A stretch of 64,000 nt of DNA from Acidimicrobiia bacterium (GCA_965220995.1 OZ244856.1:97407-161406); one strand, 5' to 3'; shown: positions 6,555 through 53,195, numbered from the stretch's first letter. Program-made: numbers and translations. The notes: a model not told the origin generated them from the letters alone.

Positions 6555-8567
6555 ATGAACCTGTTTAGAAAGCCTGGTTTGGCCAGGCTATGGGTGCTGG
6601 CGGCCCTGTTGGCTTTGGTGGCCGCCGCCTGCGGAGACGACGCAGAGGAGCCGGCTGCGACCACCGCGGCTCCCACCACCCAAGCGGCCGAGGAGCCGGC
6701 GCCCGCCCCCGACGACGAGGCGCCCGCCCCCGACGAGCCGGAAGCACCGATGGAGCCGCTGCGGATTGCGGTGGTTGCGCCGAGCGCCTCCAATGATTTG
6801 GCGTTCACGCAGAGCATCGTGGATGCAGTGAACGTGATTGTGGATGAGCATCCGGGCACCGAGGTGGCCATCACCGACGGCACCTTCATTGTGGAGGACG
6901 CGGCGGCGGCCATCCGCGGTTATGCCGAAGAGGGCTATGACCTGGTGATCGCTCATGGTTCCCAATATGGCGGGTCTTTGCAGGAGATCGCCGGGGACTT
7001 CCCCGACACGGCGTTCGCCTGGGGTACCTCCGCTGACACCCTGGGCCAGCCCAATGTCTCGGCCTACACCGCCGCCTCCGACCAGGGAGGCTACGTAATG
7101 GGCAGAATGGCCGCAGTGCTGTCCCGGTCAGGTGTGATCGGGGTGGTCGGCCCCATCGAGGTGGGCGACGCCAAGCTGTTCGTGGACGGTTTCGCCAACG
7201 GCGCCAAGGCGCAGGACGCGGTGACCGTCAACATCAACTACATCGGTTCGTTCAGTGACGTGGCGTTGGCCTCCGAAGCCGCCCAGGCGCATATCGCGTC
7301 GGGCGCCGATGTTTTGACCGGATCGGCCCAGATGGTGGTCGGCGCGGTGGGTGTCGCTCAGGCCAACGCAACTCTGTGGTTCGGCACTCAGGCCAACCAG
7401 ACATCCCTGGCGCCCGATCTGGTGGTGGCTTCCCAGGTGTACAAGTGGGAAGTGGTGTTGCGCGACATCATCGCCGACATCTCCGCCGGTTCACTGGGTG
7501 GAGAGGCCTACGAGATCAACCTCGCCAACGGGGGCCTGGTGGTCGAATACAACGACGGATTCCCCCTGCCCGACGAGGTGCGCACTCTCGCCGAGAGCAC
7601 CATCTCGGGAATAATCGACGGGAACATCAACACCATGGATCAGATGATGGTGGAAGAACCCGAGCCGATGGAGCCGCTGCGGATTGCGGTGGTTGCGCCC
7701 AGCGCCTCCAATGATTTGGCGTTCACGCAGAGCATCGTGGATGCAGTGAACGTGATTGCCGGCGAACATCCGGGCACCGAGGTGGCCATCACCGACGGCA
7801 CCTTCATTGTGGAGGACGCGGCGGCGGCGATCCGCGGCTATGCCGAAGAGGGCTATGACCTGGTGATTGCCCACGGTTCCCAATATGGTGGATCGTTGCA
7901 GGAGATCGCCGGGGACTTCCCCGACACGGCCTTCGCCTGGGGTACCTCGGCCGACACCTTCGGCCTCCCCAATGTCAGCGCTTACACCGCCGCCTCCGAC
8001 CAGGGAGGCTACGTGATGGGCGTGGTGGCCGCCAATATCTCCGAATCGGGAGTGATCGGCGTGGTCGGCCCCATCGAGGTGGGCGACGCCAAGCTGTTCG
8101 TGGACGGTTTCCACAACGGCGCGGTGGCCACTCGGGGCGACGTGACCGTGAACATCAACTACATCGGTTCGTTCAGTGATGTGGCGTTGGCTTCCGAGGC
8201 CGCCCAGGCTCATATCGCCGCCGGAGCGGATGTCCTGACCGGATCGGCCCAGATGGTGGTCGGCGCGGTGGGCGTCGCTCAGGCCAACGATGTCTATTGG
8301 TTCGGCACTCAGGCCAACCAGACATCCCTGGCGCCCGATCTGGTGGTGGCTTCCCAGGTGTACAAGTGGGAAGTGGTGTTGCGCGACATCATCGCCGACA
8401 TCTCCGCCGGTTCACTGGGCGGTCAGGCCTACGAGATCAACCTGGCCAACGGCGGACTGGTGTTGGAGCCCAATCCGGCATTCGACATACCTCCGGAGTT
8501 GTTTGCCCAGGTTGCCGCCGTGGTTCAGGGAATCATCGACGGCAGCGTCGACACCGGCGCCAACTAG
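6555..8567 (+). CDS. Tandem-duplicated BMP-family (PnrA/Med/TmpC-like) ABC substrate-binding lipoprotein
   Basis: Signal peptide with lipobox (LVAAACGDD), then an Ala/Pro/Glu-rich linker and two roughly 305-aa BMP-like modules. Each module begins MEPLRIAVVAPSASNDLAFTQSIVDAVNVI..., and the two are about 90% identical. Confidence 0.8.
   Translation: MNLFRKPGLARLWVLAALLALVAAACGDDAEEPAATTAAPTTQAAEEPAPAPDDEAPAPDEPEAPMEPLRIAVVAPSASNDLAFTQSIVDAVNVIVDEHPGTEVAITDGTFIVEDAAAAIRGYAEEGYDLVIAHGSQYGGSLQEIAGDFPDTAFAWGTSADTLGQPNVSAYTAASDQGGYVMGRMAAVLSRSGVIGVVGPIEVGDAKLFVDGFANGAKAQDAVTVNINYIGSFSDVALASEAAQAHIASGADVLTGSAQMVVGAVGVAQANATLWFGTQANQTSLAPDLVVASQVYKWEVVLRDIIADISAGSLGGEAYEINLANGGLVVEYNDGFPLPDEVRTLAESTISGIIDGNINTMDQMMVEEPEPMEPLRIAVVAPSASNDLAFTQSIVDAVNVIAGEHPGTEVAITDGTFIVEDAAAAIRGYAEEGYDLVIAHGSQYGGSLQEIAGDFPDTAFAWGTSADTFGLPNVSAYTAASDQGGYVMGVVAANISESGVIGVVGPIEVGDAKLFVDGFHNGAVATRGDVTVNINYIGSFSDVALASEAAQAHIAAGADVLTGSAQMVVGAVGVAQANDVYWFGTQANQTSLAPDLVVASQVYKWEVVLRDIIADISAGSLGGQAYEINLANGGLVLEPNPAFDIPPELFAQVAAVVQGIIDGSVDTGAN
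6750..8567 (+). repeat. Imperfect tandem duplication (period about 918 bp, 2 copies) encoding the two BMP modules
   Basis: ATGGAGCCGCTGCGGATTGCGGTGGTTGCGCC recurs at 6750 and 7668. The copies differ by scattered substitutions (e.g. ...GTGATTGTGGATGAGCAT vs GTGATTGCCGGCGAACAT). Confidence 0.8.
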
Positions 8568-37774: not shown

Positions 37775-38098
37775 TCAGAAGAACCGGAGGAGTATCCCCA
37801 CTGCTCCGAGGATCGCCAAGGCTATCCACACGGTGCGTCCGAAGGCCCTGTGCAGTCCGGCGATCTGTACCTCGATTTTGGCGATCTCCACTTCAATTCT
37901 GCTGTTGAGGGTGGTCTCCAGTCGGTCCATTCGACCGTTGAGGCTCCCTTCCAGTTGGTCCATTCGACCGTTGAGGCTCCCTTCCAGTCGGTCCATCCTG
38001 TTTTCCAGGTCGTGTTTGACCAGCATGACGTCGCCTTTGGTGGCGGGTTTCGTCATCCAGTCGTCCTCGGCGATCAACTTTTCTACCTCCAGAGCCAT
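37775..38098 (-). CDS. Small coiled-coil protein with C-terminal transmembrane anchor (DUF1640-like), containing an 11-aa tandem repeat
   Basis: RMDRLEGSLNG / RMDQLEGSLNG / RMDRLETTLNS repeats, then a hydrophobic tail 'VWIALAILGAVGILLRFF'. Confidence 0.5.
   Translation of the reverse strand: MALEVEKLIAEDDWMTKPATKGDVMLVKHDLENRMDRLEGSLNGRMDQLEGSLNGRMDRLETTLNSRIEVEIAKIEVQIAGLHRAFGRTVWIALAILGAVGILLRFF
37925..38010. repeat. 33-nt tandem repeat (about 2.6 copies) inside the small coiled-coil gene
   Basis: TCCATTCGACCGTTGAGGCTCCCTTCCAGTTGG is repeated head-to-tail, as seen directly in the sequence. Confidence 0.6.
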
Positions 38099-38315
38099 CG
38101 CATCCTCCCTTCGGGCTGGTTTGCTATATGTCCCCCTATTGGACCTGCTTTCTGTGGCATGCTACCCCAATACGGGAGTAATGCAACCCCGACTACGACC
38201 TAGCGCCGGGAGATGTCAGAGAAGATTGCGGTCTAGATAAGAAGAGTCGAGGCACGCCCGCAGTACGGCGTTGGAGACCGCAGCCTCACAATAGGCACCG
38301 TTCATATGTGAACTT

Positions 38316-40508
38316 ATGTTTACTTTTCTGAGCCGGTTCCGGCGTCAGACAGCAGTCCTGACAGCCCTGGCACTGGTAGCCAGCGTCCTGGTCACCGTAC
38401 CAGTGTCGGCTGCTGATGACGATCCGGAGGCGAATTTTGAGGCTACTTTCAGTGCCTGTGAGGGTTTGGATGCGGCTGGGTTCGAGGATGTTCCCACCGG
38501 TCATTCCAGTGCAGGGTCGATTGATTGTATTGCGTACTACGGGATTACCAGGGGAACTTCGGCTACTACCTACTCGCCGCTGATGTCGGTCACTCGTGAG
38601 CACATGGCCCTGTTCTTGACCCGTTTGGCCGCTCGGGTGGGTATCGACATGACTGCCGATCCCGATGATGCGGGGTTCACTGACATTGGTGAACTACCTG
38701 ATGAGTCGCAGACCGCCATCAATCAGTTGGCCGATCTCGACATCACCACAGGAAAGTCAGCTACTACGTATGCACCGGCTGATTCGGTGACCCGCGGCGA
38801 GATGGCACTGTTCATCTCCAGGTTGATGGACTTGATGGATCCGATGGCCGATGGTGATACCCCTTATGGGTATATCCCATCTGATGTGGTCACGAACGAA
38901 GATGACCATGACATTGGTTCTCCGTTCGCCAACGACTTGAAGGGGTCGGTAGTCACCGTCGCGGACGCAGTTGAGCAGTTGTGGGAGTTGGGTGTGGCTA
39001 CGGGTATCTCCGCCACGGCCTATGCTCCGAACGCCTCGATCACCCGCGCGGCGATGGCTGACTTCATGGCTGCTGTGTTGAATCATTCCAACGCTCGCCC
39101 GGCCGGTGTGACCATGCAGGCGACCTCGACTGAGGACTTCGGAACCGCCAGTTCCACACTTGCCATTTCTTATCGGGATGAGAACTTCGCGCCCATGGTG
39201 GACACATCGATCAAGATCTTCGATACCGAAGACGTTGGAGACTTTGACGAGGACGGCAAGTGCGCTGCTGCTGCTGACTGCGAATGGACCGATAGCGAAA
39301 CTCTCACTAACGCTGCAGGAAATATCTTCCGCGCTGTGTCCGTTGCACTTGAGACGGGCAACGCTGCCAATGACAACACCTGGTATGCGTGGATGGGTGC
39401 TGAGAATGGTGATGAGTTTGTGATGGACCAGTCCGGCGAGGCGTCTATAACCGTCTCCGCTAAACCCCAATCCCTTGGGATGAGGATCATGGCGGACATT
39501 AGCGAAGAGGCCCGCGGCACTGGTGCTACAGGGGCAGGCATCAACGTCAACCTAGCTAAGGACAGTTCGGTCCTTCTCACCGTCCAACTCGTTGACGAGG
39601 CATCCGACAGTACGACGATCGCCAATGCTGATGCTGTGGCGAAAGCTGGCATCGAACTCAGTATCGCCTGGAGTCAGGTCCCCGGTGGAACCGTCCACCC
39701 GGCTCCTGCTCCGGTCACCACTGACGAAAACGGTCAGGCAACCTTCACCATAACCGGACCTGAGGACGACGACGACACGCTACAGACCAGGACTGACACC
39801 ATTACAGTCACGGGCAATGTTGACGGCGACGAAACCACAGGGACCAATGGCGATGAGAGTGCAGCCATTGAGATTATATGGACCGATGCTGCTGCTGAGG
39901 TAATAAAAGGTGAGGCCGAAACTCCCGACTATGTCCTAGTCGTAGATGACGAGGTGAGTGTTCGAGCTACGGTCACCTACTACGACCAGTACGGCAACCC
40001 TGCTGGCGGTGGTCAAAATGTTGACATCACGATCAACAACACCGACGACAACGATGACAGTGGGACGACCACCAAGACGGATCGGACTATTGACAGTCGC
40101 GGCACGGCGGGCTACCGCGGTTCTGTTTCGGCAGAAGCCGGTCACTCGATCACCGTTTCCTTCGCCAACGGCCCAACCAATGACGGTACCACTACCGGTA
40201 CAGCAGTTTCTGTAGACTCTGTTGAGGGCATTGAAGTGTTGAGGCACGCGCATAAGAACGACAACACGACCACGACGGCGGCAGTTACCATCTACGCCGA
40301 TGATGATGTGTTCCACTTCAGCGCTGACGACAGCGAGGCCCTGTACAGCTACGATTCGGACGATGTGTTTATCACCGGCGGAGCTACCGGAGGACAGACG
40401 GTCAGCATGGACAAGTTCGAAGAAATGGTTGAGGACGGTGCCACGGTACAGGTTGTGTCCTACAGCCCAGACGGACCAAGCGTCTTTACTGTGACCGCAA
40501 CAAGCTAA
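38316..40508 (+). CDS. S-layer-homology (SLH) domain surface protein, with three N-terminal SLH domains and Ig-like/adhesin-like repeats
   Basis: A signal peptide, then three SLH modules ('FEDVPTGHSSAGSIDCIAYYGITRG..', 'FTDIGELPDESQTAINQLADLDITTG..', 'FANDLKGSV..LWELGVATGIS..'), followed by a Thr/Asp/Gly-rich beta region. Confidence 0.8.
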   Translation: MFTFLSRFRRQTAVLTALALVASVLVTVPVSAADDDPEANFEATFSACEGLDAAGFEDVPTGHSSAGSIDCIAYYGITRGTSATTYSPLMSVTREHMALFLTRLAARVGIDMTADPDDAGFTDIGELPDESQTAINQLADLDITTGKSATTYAPADSVTRGEMALFISRLMDLMDPMADGDTPYGYIPSDVVTNEDDHDIGSPFANDLKGSVVTVADAVEQLWELGVATGISATAYAPNASITRAAMADFMAAVLNHSNARPAGVTMQATSTEDFGTASSTLAISYRDENFAPMVDTSIKIFDTEDVGDFDEDGKCAAAADCEWTDSETLTNAAGNIFRAVSVALETGNAANDNTWYAWMGAENGDEFVMDQSGEASITVSAKPQSLGMRIMADISEEARGTGATGAGINVNLAKDSSVLLTVQLVDEASDSTTIANADAVAKAGIELSIAWSQVPGGTVHPAPAPVTTDENGQATFTITGPEDDDDTLQTRTDTITVTGNVDGDETTGTNGDESAAIEIIWTDAAAEVIKGEAETPDYVLVVDDEVSVRATVTYYDQYGNPAGGGQNVDITINNTDDNDDSGTTTKTDRTIDSRGTAGYRGSVSAEAGHSITVSFANGPTNDGTTTGTAVSVDSVEGIEVLRHAHKNDNTTTTAAVTIYADDDVFHFSADDSEALYSYDSDDVFITGGATGGQTVSMDKFEEMVEDGATVQVVSYSPDGPSVFTVTATS

Positions 40509-40534
40509 ACCGTCCACATCATCTAACAAAGAGA

Positions 40535-40560
40535 TGGAGGCTCCCCAACCGGGGAGCCTC
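40535..40560. terminator. Perfect hairpin GGAGGCTCCCC-aacc-GGGGAGCCTCC between the two convergent SLH genes (bidirectional terminator candidate)
   Basis: 11-bp stem and 4-nt loop in the 77-bp gap between the convergent genes. Confidence 0.5.
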
Positions 40561-40585
40561 CATCAGATAGTCAAGTGTTTTCTGT

Positions 40586-42859
40586 TTATGAACCGACCGC
40601 GGTGACTCGGAAAATGCTGACACCGTCATCGTCGTAGAACACGACCTCGACAGAACCCGCAGTTCCGCCAGTACCTGCCTTGATCAGTCCTTCGAATTTC
40701 TCGAGGGTGATACGCCTGTCTTCGCCGGCGGCGGGGGCGTCGTCGCCGCTAGTGAGGCCGTTGATGAAGGTATCGCCGTCATCATAGCTGTACAGCGCAC
40801 CCGTGATGCGGAACCGGTCCTCCTTGTCGTAGACCGCAGTAATGGGAGTAGAGGCACCCGTACTGTCGTCATCGGCATGTCTCACTGGGACCACCGAACC
40901 GTCAGCAACCTCTGGAGTAGTGACATCATTTTCGTCGGCCGCGTCCCGGAGTGTATAGGTCACTTCTAAGACTGTGCCCAGAACCCCATCAAGGGTGCGG
41001 GTCCATCTGGCCATGCCTCTGCTACTCACGGTCCTTGTGTCGGAATTATCAGCCCCGGTACCGATGGCGATCGCCACATTTTCGCCCTTGCCGGCGGGGT
41101 TGCCGTACTGGTCGTAGAACGACACCGAGGCTCGGACGGTCACCTTGTTCTGGCCGCTCAAGAAAGCGTAAGGATCAGTGCTTCCCTTACCGGAACCCAC
41201 AGCTGCCCGAGAGATAGCGGTGCCACTCCCGTCTCCGACGGTGTCAGTGGCACCGGCCGGAAGCAGGGTCGGATTGGAGTCTGTCCAGACGATCCTGGTT
41301 ACCACGGTCTCATCATTACCGCCTGTTGCTGTGTACTCATCCGTCGGATCAGCCACATCATTCTGAGTGGTGCCGTTGTCGTTCACATCGGCTTCGAAGG
41401 TAATCATGTCGACCCTGTCAACATCAACGGCGCCCTTGGTGGACTTCGGACCGGAGGCGGTGTAAGTCACCATACCGTCATCATCGGTCTTCATCGGAGC
41501 AGGCCCCGGATGCAGGCGACTTGTGCCCTGGTTCACAGTAATGCTGACTTCAACACCGGACTTGGCCACCGGTTCACCAGTACCGTCGACCAACTGCGCG
41601 GTGACAGTGACACTGCTTGTAGCGTCTATATCCACCGTGTTCTCATTGGTGGAGTTCTCGTTGATGTCAGTAGTGACCTTCAGGTGCACAGCATCAGTGG
41701 TGGAAGACAGAGTTACTGTCGCATGGGGGGACGTGTCGACGTCGAAGTCGTTCTCGTCAGCGTCGGCATCACCCATCCACGCGTAGTAGGTGTTCATCTT
41801 CCCGTTTTCAGCGATGCCGTCCTGGAAGATGTTGCCCGAAACGTCAGTCAGCGACTCGTCATCGGTCCACGCGCAGTCAGAAGCCTCTCCACAGCCACCG
41901 TCCTCGTTGAACGAACCAACCGTGTCGCTGTCGAAGACCTTGACGGACACATCGACCATCGGCATGAACATGTCATCCCGATAGGACACAGCAATGGTGG
42001 TAGAGATGTCGCCGAAGTCCGAGGTGCTTGCAGCCTGGATGGTCACACCGGCCGGTCGGGCGTTGGAGTGATCCAACACTCCAGCCATGAAACCGGCCAT
42101 CGACGCACGGGTGATAGAAGCCGCCGGACCATACGAAGTGTCAGAAAGACCAGAAGCAACACCCAACTCCCACAACGCCGTTATCGCGTCATAGGTCGAC
42201 TTCGTCACCGAACCCAAATCAGTAAACGGCGACTCCGCCTTCTTGGTCTCATCCGCGTCAGTATCATCGTCGTCTTCGACATCAACCACATCTTCGGGGG
42301 TAAACCCAAACGGGGTGTCACCATCGGCCATCGGATCCATCTGATCCATCAACCGGCTGATGAACAAAGCCATGTGACCACGCTGCACCGGATCAGAAGG
42401 TGAATAGGTGGTGTCAGACGTGCCCTGGGTGATCCCAAGATCGGCCAACTGGTTGATCGCGGTCTGTGACTCGTCCGACAGGTCACCGATATCGGTGAAA
42501 CCCGCATCGTCAGGATCGGAAGCAACCTCGATTCCCACCAACCCGGCCAGGCGAGTCAAAAACAGGGCCATATGCTCACGCGTCACCGACATCAACGGCG
42601 AATACGTGGTAGCCGACGTTCCCAGAGTGATCCCGTAATAGGCAATACAGTCGATGTCACCCGCGTTTTCATGATTCGCCGGTACGTCGGTGAAGTCCGA
42701 GGTACCCGCACCAACACACGCTGAGAACGTCGCCGTGTAATCCGCTTTCGGATCGTCGTCAGCAGCCGACACTGGTACGGCGACCAGCACACTGGCCACC
42801 AGTGCCAGGGCTGTCAGGACTGCTGTCTGACGCCGGAACCGGCTCAGAAAAGTAAACAT
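40586..42859 (-). CDS. SLH-domain surface protein, a convergent paralog of the 38316-40508 gene
   Basis: The first 35 or so residues are identical (MFTFLSRFRRQTAVLTALALVASVLV.VPVSAADDDP), and paralogy extends through three SLH domains and about 350 aa before the C-terminal halves diverge. Confidence 0.8.
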   Translation of the reverse strand: MFTFLSRFRRQTAVLTALALVASVLVAVPVSAADDDPKADYTATFSACVGAGTSDFTDVPANHENAGDIDCIAYYGITLGTSATTYSPLMSVTREHMALFLTRLAGLVGIEVASDPDDAGFTDIGDLSDESQTAINQLADLGITQGTSDTTYSPSDPVQRGHMALFISRLMDQMDPMADGDTPFGFTPEDVVDVEDDDDTDADETKKAESPFTDLGSVTKSTYDAITALWELGVASGLSDTSYGPAASITRASMAGFMAGVLDHSNARPAGVTIQAASTSDFGDISTTIAVSYRDDMFMPMVDVSVKVFDSDTVGSFNEDGGCGEASDCAWTDDESLTDVSGNIFQDGIAENGKMNTYYAWMGDADADENDFDVDTSPHATVTLSSTTDAVHLKVTTDINENSTNENTVDIDATSSVTVTAQLVDGTGEPVAKSGVEVSITVNQGTSRLHPGPAPMKTDDDGMVTYTASGPKSTKGAVDVDRVDMITFEADVNDNGTTQNDVADPTDEYTATGGNDETVVTRIVWTDSNPTLLPAGATDTVGDGSGTAISRAAVGSGKGSTDPYAFLSGQNKVTVRASVSFYDQYGNPAGKGENVAIAIGTGADNSDTRTVSSRGMARWTRTLDGVLGTVLEVTYTLRDAADENDVTTPEVADGSVVPVRHADDDSTGASTPITAVYDKEDRFRITGALYSYDDGDTFINGLTSGDDAPAAGEDRRITLEKFEGLIKAGTGGTAGSVEVVFYDDDGVSIFRVTAVGS

Positions 42860-42977
42860 AAGTTCACTTATGCATGCATGAGTTACAACTCGTCAAAGGC
42901 GCCAAGACATGATCGTAAGGCTGACGGGGAAGGGTCGGTTCGGCGATTCTGGTTTTCCGGCGCTATCTGATGGCAGA

Positions 42978-44087
42978 TCAGGAACGGACCGCGGCGATGA
43001 TCTCTTCCACAGACAGGCCGTCCAATCCCAGTCGGTCCAGGGTGCGGCCCTGGGCGATCTCAGACTCCAACCCGGCCGCAGACGCCAGATTCAGCAGGGC
43101 CTCCGCCACCGGGGTCTTCACGCCCGCCACCTTGGCCAACTCCACCATGGGAAGTAACCCATAGCCGAAATCCTCGGTGTAATAGCGGTGACCGAGAGAA
43201 TCGGGAGCCATGATCCGGGCGTTGGCTGAGCCGCCCGAGATGGCGCCCTGCAGGTCTGATTGATCGGCATCGGCCTCCACCGTGCCGATCGCCAACATCT
43301 CCTCCATCAGGGATCCCAGACGGTATCCGAAGGCTTGCGCCACGGCCAGGCGTTCCCGGTCTACGCGTTCCATAACCGAAGCCACCCCGGAAGTCATCCC
43401 CTCCACGTAGAAACGAAAATCGCCGCCCGTGGCCTCCACCCAGGCGGCGGCCATTATCGCTCCGGGGGGATGAAGGACCATATTCACCTCCGCCAATCCC
43501 ACCGCCAGCACATCGGGCTGACGGATAGCACCCGGATAGAGATGGCCGACCAGATCCAATGTCGCTTCCCCACCGGGAAGGCACCCGACCAACATCCGGG
43601 CGGCCGCTCCGGTGATGTTCACCAACCACTGCGGGTCCACCTCCCCCGCCCGATTGTTTGCACCCCCGGCTGTGGCGCGGACCGTATAGGGAAGAGTGGA
43701 ACATTCGGCAATGGCGGGCAGGCACTCGACACCGCTATCCTGCATCACCTTCGCCACCTCCAAGGCGCCTCCCAGGTGACCGGGCGCCAACACCACGGGG
43801 TCCTCGCATCCCACCCGCGCCAAATGTCGGGCCACCTCCCGGTGAGCAGTGGAGGGCAGGCAAACCAGCACTCCGGCTGCTCCCCTCACCGCCTCTGCCA
43901 CGCTGTTGGTGCAGTTGACCGGCATCACCCCATCACCGAACACTCCTTGGTACGCCAGGTGAAACCCGGCAACAGGCTCTTTCGGCAACGTGCGCCGCCA
44001 CCAAACTACGTCGAACCCTCGCAGCGTCAGGTCGACTGTCGCCGCCATGCCCCCCGCTCCCCCTCCCATCACCACAATCCGGGTCAC
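42978..44087 (-). CDS. NAD(P)-dependent opine (octopine/nopaline-type) dehydrogenase-family protein
   Basis: N-terminal Rossmann 'IVVMGGGAGG' and a C-terminal 'YYTEDFGYGLLP' region typical of the opine dehydrogenase family. Confidence 0.75.
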   Translation of the reverse strand: MTRIVVMGGGAGGMAATVDLTLRGFDVVWWRRTLPKEPVAGFHLAYQGVFGDGVMPVNCTNSVAEAVRGAAGVLVCLPSTAHREVARHLARVGCEDPVVLAPGHLGGALEVAKVMQDSGVECLPAIAECSTLPYTVRATAGGANNRAGEVDPQWLVNITGAAARMLVGCLPGGEATLDLVGHLYPGAIRQPDVLAVGLAEVNMVLHPPGAIMAAAWVEATGGDFRFYVEGMTSGVASVMERVDRERLAVAQAFGYRLGSLMEEMLAIGTVEADADQSDLQGAISGGSANARIMAPDSLGHRYYTEDFGYGLLPMVELAKVAGVKTPVAEALLNLASAAGLESEIAQGRTLDRLGLDGLSVEEIIAAVRS

Positions 44088-51213: not shown

Positions 51214-51810
51214 ATGAGAATCCTGGTGGTGTGGGCTCACCCCCTGGCCGACAGCTACTCGGCGGCCCTCAAGGACCGGGCCGTGGAGGCCCTGGCGAGG
51301 GCCGGGCACGACATCGACCTCCTGGACCTCTACGCCGAGGAGTTCGACCCGGTCCTGTCCGCCCAAGAACGCCGGGACTACCACGAAATCGGCCCGAACC
51401 TGGCCAATGTCTCGGCCTATGTGGAAAGGCTCCGAGCCGCCGAGGGGTTGTTGTTGATCTTCCCCACCTGGAGCTTCGGTTACCCGGCCATCCTCACCGG
51501 GTGGCTGCAGCGGGTGTGGATCCCTGGAGTGGCCTTCGGACTGCGGGAAGAAGGCGGCCCCATCATCCGGGGAATTCTCAACATCCGGAGAGTGGCGGCA
51601 GTGACCACCACCGGCTCACCATGGTGGTATGTCCTGGCGGTGGGCAACCCGGCCAAACGGGTCCTCAAACGCGGTCACCGGGCCATGTTCGCCCGGGGGT
51701 GTCGAGTCAAGTGGCTGGACCTGAACAACATGAACAAGGACTCGCCGAACAAGCGAAAAAAGTTCCTGGGCCGAGTGGAGCGCACCCTGCCATCCTTCTT
51801 TTCCGATTGA
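51214..51810 (+). CDS. Flavodoxin-like fold NAD(P)H-dependent oxidoreductase (NQO1/quinone reductase-like)
   Basis: 'MRILVVWAHPLADSYSAAL' start and overall pattern typical of the NAD(P)H dehydrogenase (quinone)/FMN reductase family. Confidence 0.7.
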   Translation: MRILVVWAHPLADSYSAALKDRAVEALARAGHDIDLLDLYAEEFDPVLSAQERRDYHEIGPNLANVSAYVERLRAAEGLLLIFPTWSFGYPAILTGWLQRVWIPGVAFGLREEGGPIIRGILNIRRVAAVTTTGSPWWYVLAVGNPAKRVLKRGHRAMFARGCRVKWLDLNNMNKDSPNKRKKFLGRVERTLPSFFSD

Positions 51811-51819
51811 CTCCCACCA

Positions 51820-51980
51820 GGCCGCTTTCCGGACTTATAGAGACTTTAAGGGCTTATAGGAAAAATGCTATAACTTCAACAAGTCCCTATAACTCCACGT
51901 CCCACGCACAACCTCCTCCCCCCAACTTATAGGAACTTGTTACACTTATAGAAAAAACGCTATAACTTCAACAAGTCTCT
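51820..51980. repeat. AT-rich iteron-like array: two roughly 42-bp direct repeats carrying 8 copies of a CTATAA(C/G) heptamer
   Basis: GCTTATAGGAAAAATGCTATAACTTCAACAAGTCCCTATAAC (51842-51883) and CACTTATAGAAAAAACGCTATAACTTCAACAAGTCTCTATAAC (51934-51976). CTTATAG/CTATAAC copies are at 51824, 51843, 51858, 51878, 51915, 51936, 51950 and 51970. Confidence 0.65.
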
Positions 51981-52019
51981 ATAACCCGTCAACACATCAC
52001 CCCCGATCAACCCTGATAG

Positions 52020-53195
52020 ATGGACCCCAGCCAGAATCCCTACAGTCCCGGAGCAGGGGCCCAACCTCCTGCCCTGGTTGGGCGAGACCGGGAACTGGAA
52101 CAGTTCGACATCGCAGTCGCGCGACTCGGCAGGGGGCTCTACGATCGCAGCTTCCTGGTAAGCGGGCTCCGCGGTGTGGGCAAGACCGTTCTTCTCTCCG
52201 AGTACTGCAGCATCGCCCATCAGCACAAATGGGCATACCAGCAAATTGAGGCTGCCAGGAACCTCGATCTGCCACGCGTCATTGCGGATCGGATACGTCT
52301 GGCCTTGCTGCAGTTATCCCCAGGCCGTCGTGTCGCTGCCCGTGGTCGCAGGGTGCTGCAAGTATTGAAATCTTTCAAAGTGCGGTGGAACCTGCCGGAA
52401 GGGGGCGAACTGGAAGTGGGTGTCGATCCCATTCCCGGCCGAGCCGACACGGGAATTCTCCAAGAAGATCTCACCGACCTCTTTATGGAGGTGGGCGAGT
52501 ACGCCCGAGAGCGGAAAGTCGGGGTTCTCATCACTATTGATGAAGCCCAATACCTGGACAAGAGCCAGCTTGTGCCGTTGCTCATGGGGCTTCACATGAT
52601 CGGCCAGAGGAATCTCCCCTTCATGGTGGTGTGCGCAGGGCTGCCATCCCTTCCCGGCTTGGTAGGTGAAGCCCGATCGTACGCCGAACGATTGTTTACC
52701 TTTGCAACCATCAACAGTCTTCAACCGGAGGAGTCCGTCACTGCACTAACCGCCCCGGCGGCCCGACACGACATCCAATGGGATGATGACGCCTTGGCAA
52801 GAATCGTTGAAGAGACGTCCGGTTATCCCTATTTCCTCCAGGAGTTCGGGAAACAGGCCTGGAACTTTGCGACCGATACTCACCGAATCACCCTGGCTGA
52901 TGTAGAGAGCACCGTACCGATGGCGATCCGAGAGCTTGACCTGGGTTTCTTCAATGTGCGGTTCCACCGCACCACTGGCGCAGAGAGAGCCTATCTGGCC
53001 ACCATGGCCGCCCTTGGACCCGGCCCCCACCCATCAGGGCAAGTGGCATCCAAAATGGGCAGAACGACTTCCCAGGTCAGCACTCTCCGCAACACCTTGT
53101 TGGCCAAGGGCCTTTGCTACGCCCCTCGCTACGGCGAAATCGCCTTCACCGTGCCCATGTTTGATCAGTTCCTCCTCCGCCGTCTGTCGTCATGA
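52020..53195 (+). CDS. AAA+ ATPase (Arch_ATPase/AAA_16-like, ORC/Cdc6-type P-loop) with C-terminal wHTH-like region
   Basis: 'LVGRDRELEQ...LVSGLRGVGKTVLL' Walker A and 'VLITIDEAQYL' Walker B. Function unknown. Confidence 0.65.
   Translation: MDPSQNPYSPGAGAQPPALVGRDRELEQFDIAVARLGRGLYDRSFLVSGLRGVGKTVLLSEYCSIAHQHKWAYQQIEAARNLDLPRVIADRIRLALLQLSPGRRVAARGRRVLQVLKSFKVRWNLPEGGELEVGVDPIPGRADTGILQEDLTDLFMEVGEYARERKVGVLITIDEAQYLDKSQLVPLLMGLHMIGQRNLPFMVVCAGLPSLPGLVGEARSYAERLFTFATINSLQPEESVTALTAPAARHDIQWDDDALARIVEETSGYPYFLQEFGKQAWNFATDTHRITLADVESTVPMAIRELDLGFFNVRFHRTTGAERAYLATMAALGPGPHPSGQVASKMGRTTSQVSTLRNTLLAKGLCYAPRYGEIAFTVPMFDQFLLRRLSS

Follow-up and report, generated by a model that had tools for sequence, protein, structure and literature searches.

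A mirrored array of phased boxes as a putative promoter-operator of a solitary ORC/Cdc6-like ATPase gene in Acidimicrobiia

The intergenic array and the ATPase gene

The stretch of DNA analysed here, 64,000 nucleotides from an Acidimicrobiia bacterium (GCA_965220995.1 OZ244856.1:97407-161406; hereafter the window), carries an array of short repeated boxes in the intergenic region 51811-52019, between a Flavodoxin_2 gene (51214-51810, + strand) and a gene for an ATPase of 391 amino acids (52020-53195, + strand). The region begins directly after the stop codon of the co-directional Flavodoxin_2 gene. It is 209 bp long and has a GC content of 45.0%, compared with 62.5% for the window as a whole. 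A first-pass annotation, made from the sequence alone, had put this AT-rich stretch at about 45% GC, as we measured, but had set it against a background of about 68%, which is too high.

An exact search for CTATAAS (S being C or G) returned 10 sites in the 64-kb window, where 1.38 are expected; the maximum in 100 dinucleotide shuffles of the window was 5, and no shuffle reached 10. Eight of the 10 are packed within 152 bp of the intergenic region, and these are the eight CTATAA(C/G) boxes counted at first pass. The other two, CTATAAC at 35429 and 39445, are isolated, with no dyad around either. A repeat search placed the eight boxes in a direct repeat of 61 nt, with a distal unit at 51833-51893 and a proximal unit at 51925-51985 that are 82% identical and have a start-to-start period of 92 bp. 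The first-pass annotation had the period right, but the 42-bp repeats that it described are the better-conserved 3' part of the 61-nt repeat. It had also read each repeat as one CTTATAG and two CTATAAC boxes, and missed that each unit is at the same time an inverted repeat, CTTATAG-12-CTTATAG-8-CTATAAC-12-CTATAAC, an architecture conserved in relatives. Two boxes per unit face left and two face right, with the inner pair 8 nt apart and boxes of the same orientation 19 bp apart from start to start, not 20 bp as first reported.

In the distal unit, the left-facing boxes L3 and L1 (CTATAAG on the minus strand) lie at 51834-51840 and 51853-51859, and the right-facing boxes R1 and R3 (CTATAAC on the plus strand) at 51868-51874 and 51887-51893. 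Their counterparts in the proximal unit, found by the same motif search, are L3 at 51926-51932 and L1 at 51945-51951 on the minus strand, and R1 at 51960-51966 and R3 at 51979-51985 on the plus strand. The middle of an arm holds a weaker symmetric element, CTTGTT or AACAAG. As read from the sequence, CTTGTT at 51936-51941 mirrors AACAAG at 51970-51975 in the proximal unit, and the distal unit has CTTTAA at 51844-51849 and AACAAG at 51878-51883. With these elements counted, the sites within an arm are ~9-10 bp apart, roughly one helical turn, and a unit spans 57-61 bp. The dyad centre of the proximal unit lies ~64 nt upstream of the ATPase ATG. That the repeat cluster is a putative multi-site binding array, and not a product of chance, is supported.

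The ATPase begins with MDPSQNPYSPGAG, in agreement with the N-terminus of its family. Only AAA_16 scored above its Pfam cut-off (E=4.7e-15), with AAA_22 and AAA_14 below theirs; the protein did not match the Arch_ATPase family PF01637, and the C-terminal 161 residues searched alone against Pfam matched nothing. PADLOC, NCBIfam, PHROGs and PDB-sequence searches returned no informative family, a PDB profile search returned ORC4 only (E ~1e-3), and the Orc1/Cdc6 model TIGR02928 reached 20 bits over residues 15-68 only, far from its cut-off of 181.3. An AlphaFold model built from 28 homologues (predicted local distance difference test score, pLDDT, 78) consists of an AAA+ core and a helical lid, with a winged helix modelled confidently at the C-terminus; these are the features of the Orc1/Cdc6 fold, and the model also matches the fold of the solved Arch_ATPase members. 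Foldseek placed Sulfolobus Orc1/Cdc6 in complex with origin DNA first (E=1.3e-7), ahead of ORC1, RuvB, SSO1545, CED-4 and MalT. The Walker A and Walker B motifs and SYAERLF, the putative Arg-finger motif, are invariant across the family, as is the GYPYF (GxP) motif carried by the lid. The C-terminal winged helix-turn-helix is conserved and resembles ArsR/MarR repressors as well as DNA-bound Orc1/Cdc6. The predicted model thus confirms, at the level of the fold, the ORC/Arch-ATPase-like protein with a C-terminal winged helix that had been recognised at first pass.

Two highly conserved segments, LKSFxxRWNLPxGG...ADSG (residues ~100-150) and GEARSYAERLF (211-230), fall partly or wholly in parts of the model with pLDDT <50 (128-145 and 211-230). 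It may take contact with DNA or assembly into an oligomer to order these segments.

Box arrays and promoters across the ATPase family

The family is large. More than 7,800 proteins, counted as representatives of 90%-identity clusters, match at E<=0.001, and 774 clusters at 50% identity match at E<=1e-30, nearly all of them ~390 amino acids long. A GTDB scan confirmed at least 596 loci, with Acidobacteriota, Actinomycetota, Alpha-, Beta- and Gammaproteobacteria, Planctomycetota, Chlamydiota, Bacteroidota, Verrucomicrobiota and others among the matches listed; Pseudomonadota are also among the hosts, which come from more than ten phyla. Of 72,556 plasmids, 118 carry a family gene, which in most cases lies in an accessory region. 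A single 'phage' match, MT837995, is an unverified high-GC fragment that lacks the array and is uninformative. The sources that name these proteins call them only 'ATP-binding protein' or 'AAA family ATPase'.

The gene is also solitary. All-against-all clustering of the flanking open reading frames (ORFs) gave no conserved neighbour, and the 144 immediate neighbour ORFs fell into 142 Pfam families, none seen more than three times. Because there is no partner gene, the encoded protein is the sole factor that travels with the array. The neighbours are mostly housekeeping genes, with ResIII three times, integrase twice and DruA once among the 144, which is not the make-up of a defence island. The best PADLOC match of the ATPase, PDC-S27 (E=0.0014, 15.6 bits), is likewise too weak to assign it to anti-phage defence.

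We compared the upstream regions of ~85 homologous loci from many phyla, 84 of them as ATG-anchored regions. A per-locus greedy 8-mer motif finder was too noisy to define boxes, and dyad-anchored and ATG-anchored analyses were used instead. Most of the loci have a mirrored array of boxes phased at ~10 bp just upstream of the start codon. Over the 84 anchored regions, TAA has its maxima near -31, -22 and -13 and TTA near -45, -54 and -65, a mirrored pattern phased at 9-10 bp. Gap-free dyad scores of at least 20/32 were found at 21 of the 84 loci, compared with 0.5% of shuffles, and scores of at least 18/32 at 35 (shuffles 3.3%). The dyad centres cluster 36-38 nt 5' of the ATG.

A TAA/ATA core is common to the boxes, and the full box sequence is specific to the locus and uniform inside it; examples are GTATAA at L070, GGGATAAA at L031, GnTAAGA at L042, GTTAAAG/GCTAAT at L034 and CTATAA in the window. 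Box type tracks the protein clade and the sequence of the recognition helix. Proteins with '-ESVAPRR-' go with TAAGA boxes, those with 'HRT...SLGPVRAKLIKKGM' with (G/C)TATAA, those with 'TSLGPTRNQLI' with TAAAC, and those with 'SQVSTxRN', the clade of the window, with CTATAA. Two paralogues, L051 and L084, lie ~85 kb apart on one 3.14-Mb Acidimicrobiia contig; their proteins are 46% and 70% identical to that of the window, and their boxes are ATAAGAT and CTATAA, respectively. Since the array travels with a solitary gene across phyla and differs between paralogues in one genome, binding by the protein that the gene encodes is the simplest explanation. The suggestion made at first pass, that the downstream ATPase is the cognate binder, is therefore very probably correct: the array accompanies the gene at most of the ~85 loci, its boxes are locus-specific and no other gene co-travels.

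A strict metagenome scan for the architecture of the window's unit (24 specified bases) found three loci, all beside a family gene, one of which is truncated. At L095 (8391-9510 of MKWU01000187.1), only the part of the ATPase gene for the C-terminal 177 amino acids is left, yet one intact unit persists beside the Flavodoxin_2 gene. No second copy of the array's own arm composite was found in the 64-kb window, and the whole 75-kb plasmid pPO70-3, which carries a family gene, likewise has no second copy of its own.

At 24 loci, which we call canonical, the column consensus reads TTGATA (-35 to -30), 17 nt, TATAAT (-12 to -7), 6 nt, ATG. From this consensus, the canonical right arm is predicted to be a sigma-70 promoter whose -35 and -10 elements are the inner and outer right boxes, and the distance from promoter to ATG predicts that the mRNA is leaderless. 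Across the family, then, the sites sit on the -35 and -10 elements of their own gene. For the window this holds by analogy only, through the 19-bp spacing of R1 and R3: box R1 of the proximal unit occupies the position of the canonical -35 region, and box R3 contains TATAAC (51980-51985), the putative -10 hexamer, which would put the transcription start near 51992 and leave a 5' untranslated region of ~28 nt. In the wider clade of the window, the array likewise lies farther upstream and a leader is present.

The same facts could be explained by the promoter alone, or by a global factor of the host, such as a nucleoid protein or general regulator, with the adjacent ATPase not being the binder. 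The boxes are AT-rich and resemble -10 hexamers, the canonical R1 and R3 coincide with promoter elements, and nucleoid proteins are drawn to AT-rich tracts in high-GC genomes. However, neither a promoter nor an UP element calls for a mirrored arm on the left or for boxes in three phased copies on each arm, and the boxes differ between loci and between paralogues of one genome while being uniform within a locus. With the array kept in hosts of more than ten phyla, no single host factor fits. We therefore consider this explanation very unlikely. The first-pass annotation had allowed that the repeats might be simply the promoter; they do lie in a promoter region, but one that appears to be built as a multimeric operator.

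Dyads that follow directly on the stop codon of a co-directional gene might also act as RNA, be it as a structured 5' leader, a small RNA or the terminator of the Flavodoxin_2 gene, and the region does fold far better than shuffles (z = -4.7). Such a fold follows trivially from dyad symmetry, however. There is no T-tract 3' of the hairpins, and a terminator scan found one weak terminator-like site only, inside the upstream gene and on the opposite strand. Rfam gave no match at gathering score, and one at E=3 with a permissive threshold. The mismatches between arms show no marked wobble bias (83 of GU type and 65 of AC type among 412), and a hairpin does not require box repeats at ~10-bp phase within an arm. 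Furthermore, if the canonical right arm serves as promoter for a leaderless mRNA, most of the dyad would not be transcribed with the gene. A role as RNA is thus highly improbable.

The window's lineage and a promoter-operator reading

In relatives of the window (69-73% protein identity), the order Amidohydrolase - Flavodoxin_2 - ATPase - M24 peptidase - RibD_C is kept, with no integrase, relaxase, helicase or tRNA near the locus; a tRNA scan of the window itself also found none. This synteny indicates that the gene is a long-standing chromosomal resident and not a recent insertion. It also speaks against the idea that the repeats are arm-type or att sites of an integrated element, for which the first-pass annotation had suggested looking for a nearby integrase or an att duplication outside the window: no integrase lies around the locus, there is no tRNA in the window, and the Flavodoxin_2 and M24 peptidase genes flank the ATPase gene in the same order in relatives.

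The array itself varies in copy number within this lineage. There is one unit at L086 and L095; two in the window and at L097 (92 bp from start to start), at L100 (86 bp) and at L085 and L098 (about 135 bp); and three at L084 (about 95 bp). The spacing thus ranges from 86 to 135 bp, and the inter-unit sequences look unrelated when set side by side as unaligned spacers. When aligned, the 12 units of the clade have a mean column identity of 80%, and the invariant columns lie within the four boxes and the TGT/ACA middle elements, whose TGTT and AACA columns are invariant or nearly so. At L097, where the protein is 99% identical to that of the window, the array is the same as the window's, its proximal unit included.

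The closest fold matches and the repeated boxes might point to a replication origin, in which the boxes would be analogues of iterons or origin recognition boxes (ORBs) and the ORC-like ATPase would melt DNA for a plasmid-derived or integrated element. Archaeal origins have inverted ORB elements beside the orc1/cdc6 gene, and the closest fold to the ATPase is indeed Orc1/Cdc6, including its origin-DNA-bound form; yet the protein fails the Orc1/Cdc6 sequence model (20 bits vs 181) and matches no Rep family. The arms of a unit are 8 nt apart, which leaves no AT-rich unwinding element between them, and throughout the family the array overlies its own gene's promoter. The cumulative GC skew declines steadily between 43 and 64 kb and does not turn at 52 kb. 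An archaeal-type origin, with inverted boxes flanking an unwinding element at a skew switch, was rejected on the 8-nt gap and the absence of a skew turn. An iteron-type plasmid origin, with head-to-tail repeats of 17-22 bp and a Rep gene, was rejected since the locus has mirrored 7-bp cores, no Rep match and no mobile genes. The iterons of the first-pass annotation are thus not upheld at this syntenic chromosomal site, where the relatives have a 70-73% identical protein and no integrase, relaxase, helicase or tRNA nearby.

The plasmid contexts are ambiguous in Pandoraea as regards a Rep role. The gene occurs on 118 plasmids, and on the Pandoraea plasmids pPO70-3 (L083) and pPV15 (L090), which have no MOB-suite replicon type, it is divergent from parA-parB; pPO70-3 also lacks an annotated Rep in the whole PLSDB gene table, itself incomplete. 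However, most of the plasmids examined have the gene in an accessory region and another, typed replicon, and in Pandoraea parB is followed, in an arrangement like that of repABC, by an uncharacterised gene of 436-446 amino acids without a Pfam match that is just as good a candidate for Rep. Overall, we regard the origin explanation as quite unlikely.

We favour, with a probability of about 0.7, the reading that the array serves the gene at 52020-53195 as a private, autoregulatory promoter-operator, to which the encoded protein would bind as an oligomer, as far as sequence comparison can tell. We infer binding by the gene product, its dependence on ATP and the sign of the regulation. In the proposed mechanism, the winged helices of several copies of the ORC/Cdc6-like ATPase would bind the phased boxes of each arm, and the AAA+ domains would oligomerise along the arm in a nucleotide-dependent manner, giving two oppositely oriented sub-assemblies per unit, much like DnaA on the two halves of oriC. 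The predicted stoichiometry is two to three protomers per arm. In canonical loci an arm has three sites that are alike, and in the clade of the window it has two strong boxes and a distinct middle element. We speculate that the AAA+ insertion at residues ~100-150, if it also contacts DNA, may decide between these two designs; in Orc1, the initiator-specific motif contacts DNA. As the -35 and -10 elements lie in the right arm, protein on the array would compete with RNA polymerase and so control its access, with autorepression as the most likely outcome. The whole unit was duplicated in tandem in this lineage (two here, one to three in relatives), and tandem units may give a steeper, cooperative response or allow looping.

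Several observations weigh against this promoter-operator reading. All of its support is comparative. About half of the loci do not exceed shuffles when dyads are scored without gaps, although many show boxes by eye, and common descent could account for part of the match between box type and protein clade. In the window, a strict sigma-70 consensus scan of the region found no promoter, the putative -10 hexamer TATAAC is without the usual final T, and the array lies farther upstream than in canonical loci (centre at -64 vs -37). The relation of boxes to promoter is not fixed either: the last box abuts the start codon at L094 and L096, at the latter a GTG preceded by a GGGAGG Shine-Dalgarno sequence in place of the middle box, so the boxes serving as -10 elements must differ between loci. 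Finally, self-regulation alone would leave the protein without an evident purpose, which means that a second function must exist.

We also put forward a broader, tentative idea that we consider unlikely: gene and array may form a self-contained, horizontally transferable module, in which a minimal bacterial ORC/Cdc6-like ATPase would assemble on DNA as a nucleotide-driven switch, and its real output would be other than its own transcription and would have gone unrecognised. Candidate outputs are local DNA melting or replication initiation on plasmids without a known Rep, as next to parAB in Pandoraea, and stand-alone DNA-sensing defence or addiction.

Two further features of the surroundings were recorded. 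Directly 3' of the ATPase gene, four of the relatives have a homologous ORF of ~350 amino acids with a PD-(D/E)xK-like motif (RPDMVGYD...LLVESKFWA), at 4240-5313 of L084, 4226-5503 of L085, 2784-3830 of L100 and 7271-8338 (- strand) of L095; it is absent from the window, L086, L097 and L098. This ORF has 761 homologues and no Pfam or PADLOC match. We rejected it as a partner of the ATPase: elsewhere it follows a conserved 125-amino-acid ORF in toxin-antitoxin, recombinase and SIR2 neighbourhoods, without the ATPase. Within the window, a lower-GC island at 32000-43000 (0.56-0.60 vs 0.625) carries a gene for an AAA_14+DUF4143 ATPase (32278-33540, + strand), an ORF of 1383 amino acids without a Pfam match (33537-37688, +) and genes for two SLH-domain proteins (38316-40508, +; 40586-42859, -).

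Comparison with known systems

The inverted sites immediately upstream of the gene for their presumed binder are reminiscent of archaeal Orc1/Cdc6 and the ORB or mini-ORB elements at oriC (Sulfolobus, PDB 2qby). Unlike those, the system described here is bacterial, its protein fails the Orc1/Cdc6 hidden Markov model, and no unwinding element lies between the arms; its 7-bp cores are set at ~10-bp phase on a promoter, with neither a skew switch nor MCM or a helicase in the context. The archaeal Arch_ATPase proteins PAB2304 (2qen) and SSO1545 (2fna) share only 11-14% sequence identity with the ATPase, which has no PF01637 match. To our knowledge, the function of PAB2304 and SSO1545 is not known either, so this fold match explains no mechanism.

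Another likeness is to DnaA on the halves of oriC and on the dnaA promoter, as an AAA+ protein with a C-terminal DNA-binding domain. DnaA binds closely phased short boxes in two opposed arrays, oligomerises in an ATP-dependent manner and autoregulates its own promoter. Unlike DnaA, whose domain IV is a helix-turn-helix, the ATPase has a winged helix and belongs to another AAA+ subfamily, and there is no link to replication here. The gene dnaA itself is reported to have been the first recognised transcriptional target of DnaA (PMC8203912). A precedent for an ORC-type AAA+/winged-helix protein that acts as a transcription factor and not as an initiator is Sulfolobus Orc1-2, which is described as a non-initiator Orc1 paralogue and DNA-damage-responsive regulator of transcription (PMC9738581). 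Orc1-2 is archaeal and a global regulator with many targets, whereas here no second target was found in the window or on pPO70-3.

The ATPase also has the core features of STAND regulators such as MalT and IniR (PMC5760070): an AAA_16 match, a nucleotide-binding domain, a helical domain with the GxP motif (GYPYF) and a winged-helix domain. MalT and CED-4 are among its fold matches. However, the 391 residues comprise the core module alone and leave no room for a sensor, an effector or a separate DNA-binding domain. With regard to the DNA, phased short sites over the binder's own promoter that are filled by cooperative multimers are known from parC-ParR of plasmid R1 and from lambda OR1-3 and cI. 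The lambda PRM transcript is leaderless too, and the binders in these systems are small ribbon-helix-helix or helix-turn-helix proteins without an ATPase. The candidate binder here is instead an AAA+ protein of 391 amino acids.

We found no description of the family or of the array in open-access papers. With the array, the family gains a concrete, testable cis-element, comprising a probable DNA target, a predicted stoichiometry, a predicted promoter and a predicted leaderless start. It could serve as a tractable bacterial model of how an ORC-type AAA+/winged-helix protein reads phased sites; its protein clades and box variants form a natural set for the evolution of specificity, and the locus-specific boxes could supply orthogonal regulator-operator pairs.

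Elements of this kind are known, both autoregulatory multi-site operators and AAA+ DNA-binding proteins that act on phased boxes. The apparent novelty is a module of this kind around a stand-alone bacterial ORC/Arch-ATPase-like protein, with a mirrored, phased box array that is predicted to form its own promoter, and a leaderless mRNA in canonical loci. Its spread over bacterial phyla, with box variants that track the protein clade, appears to be new as well.

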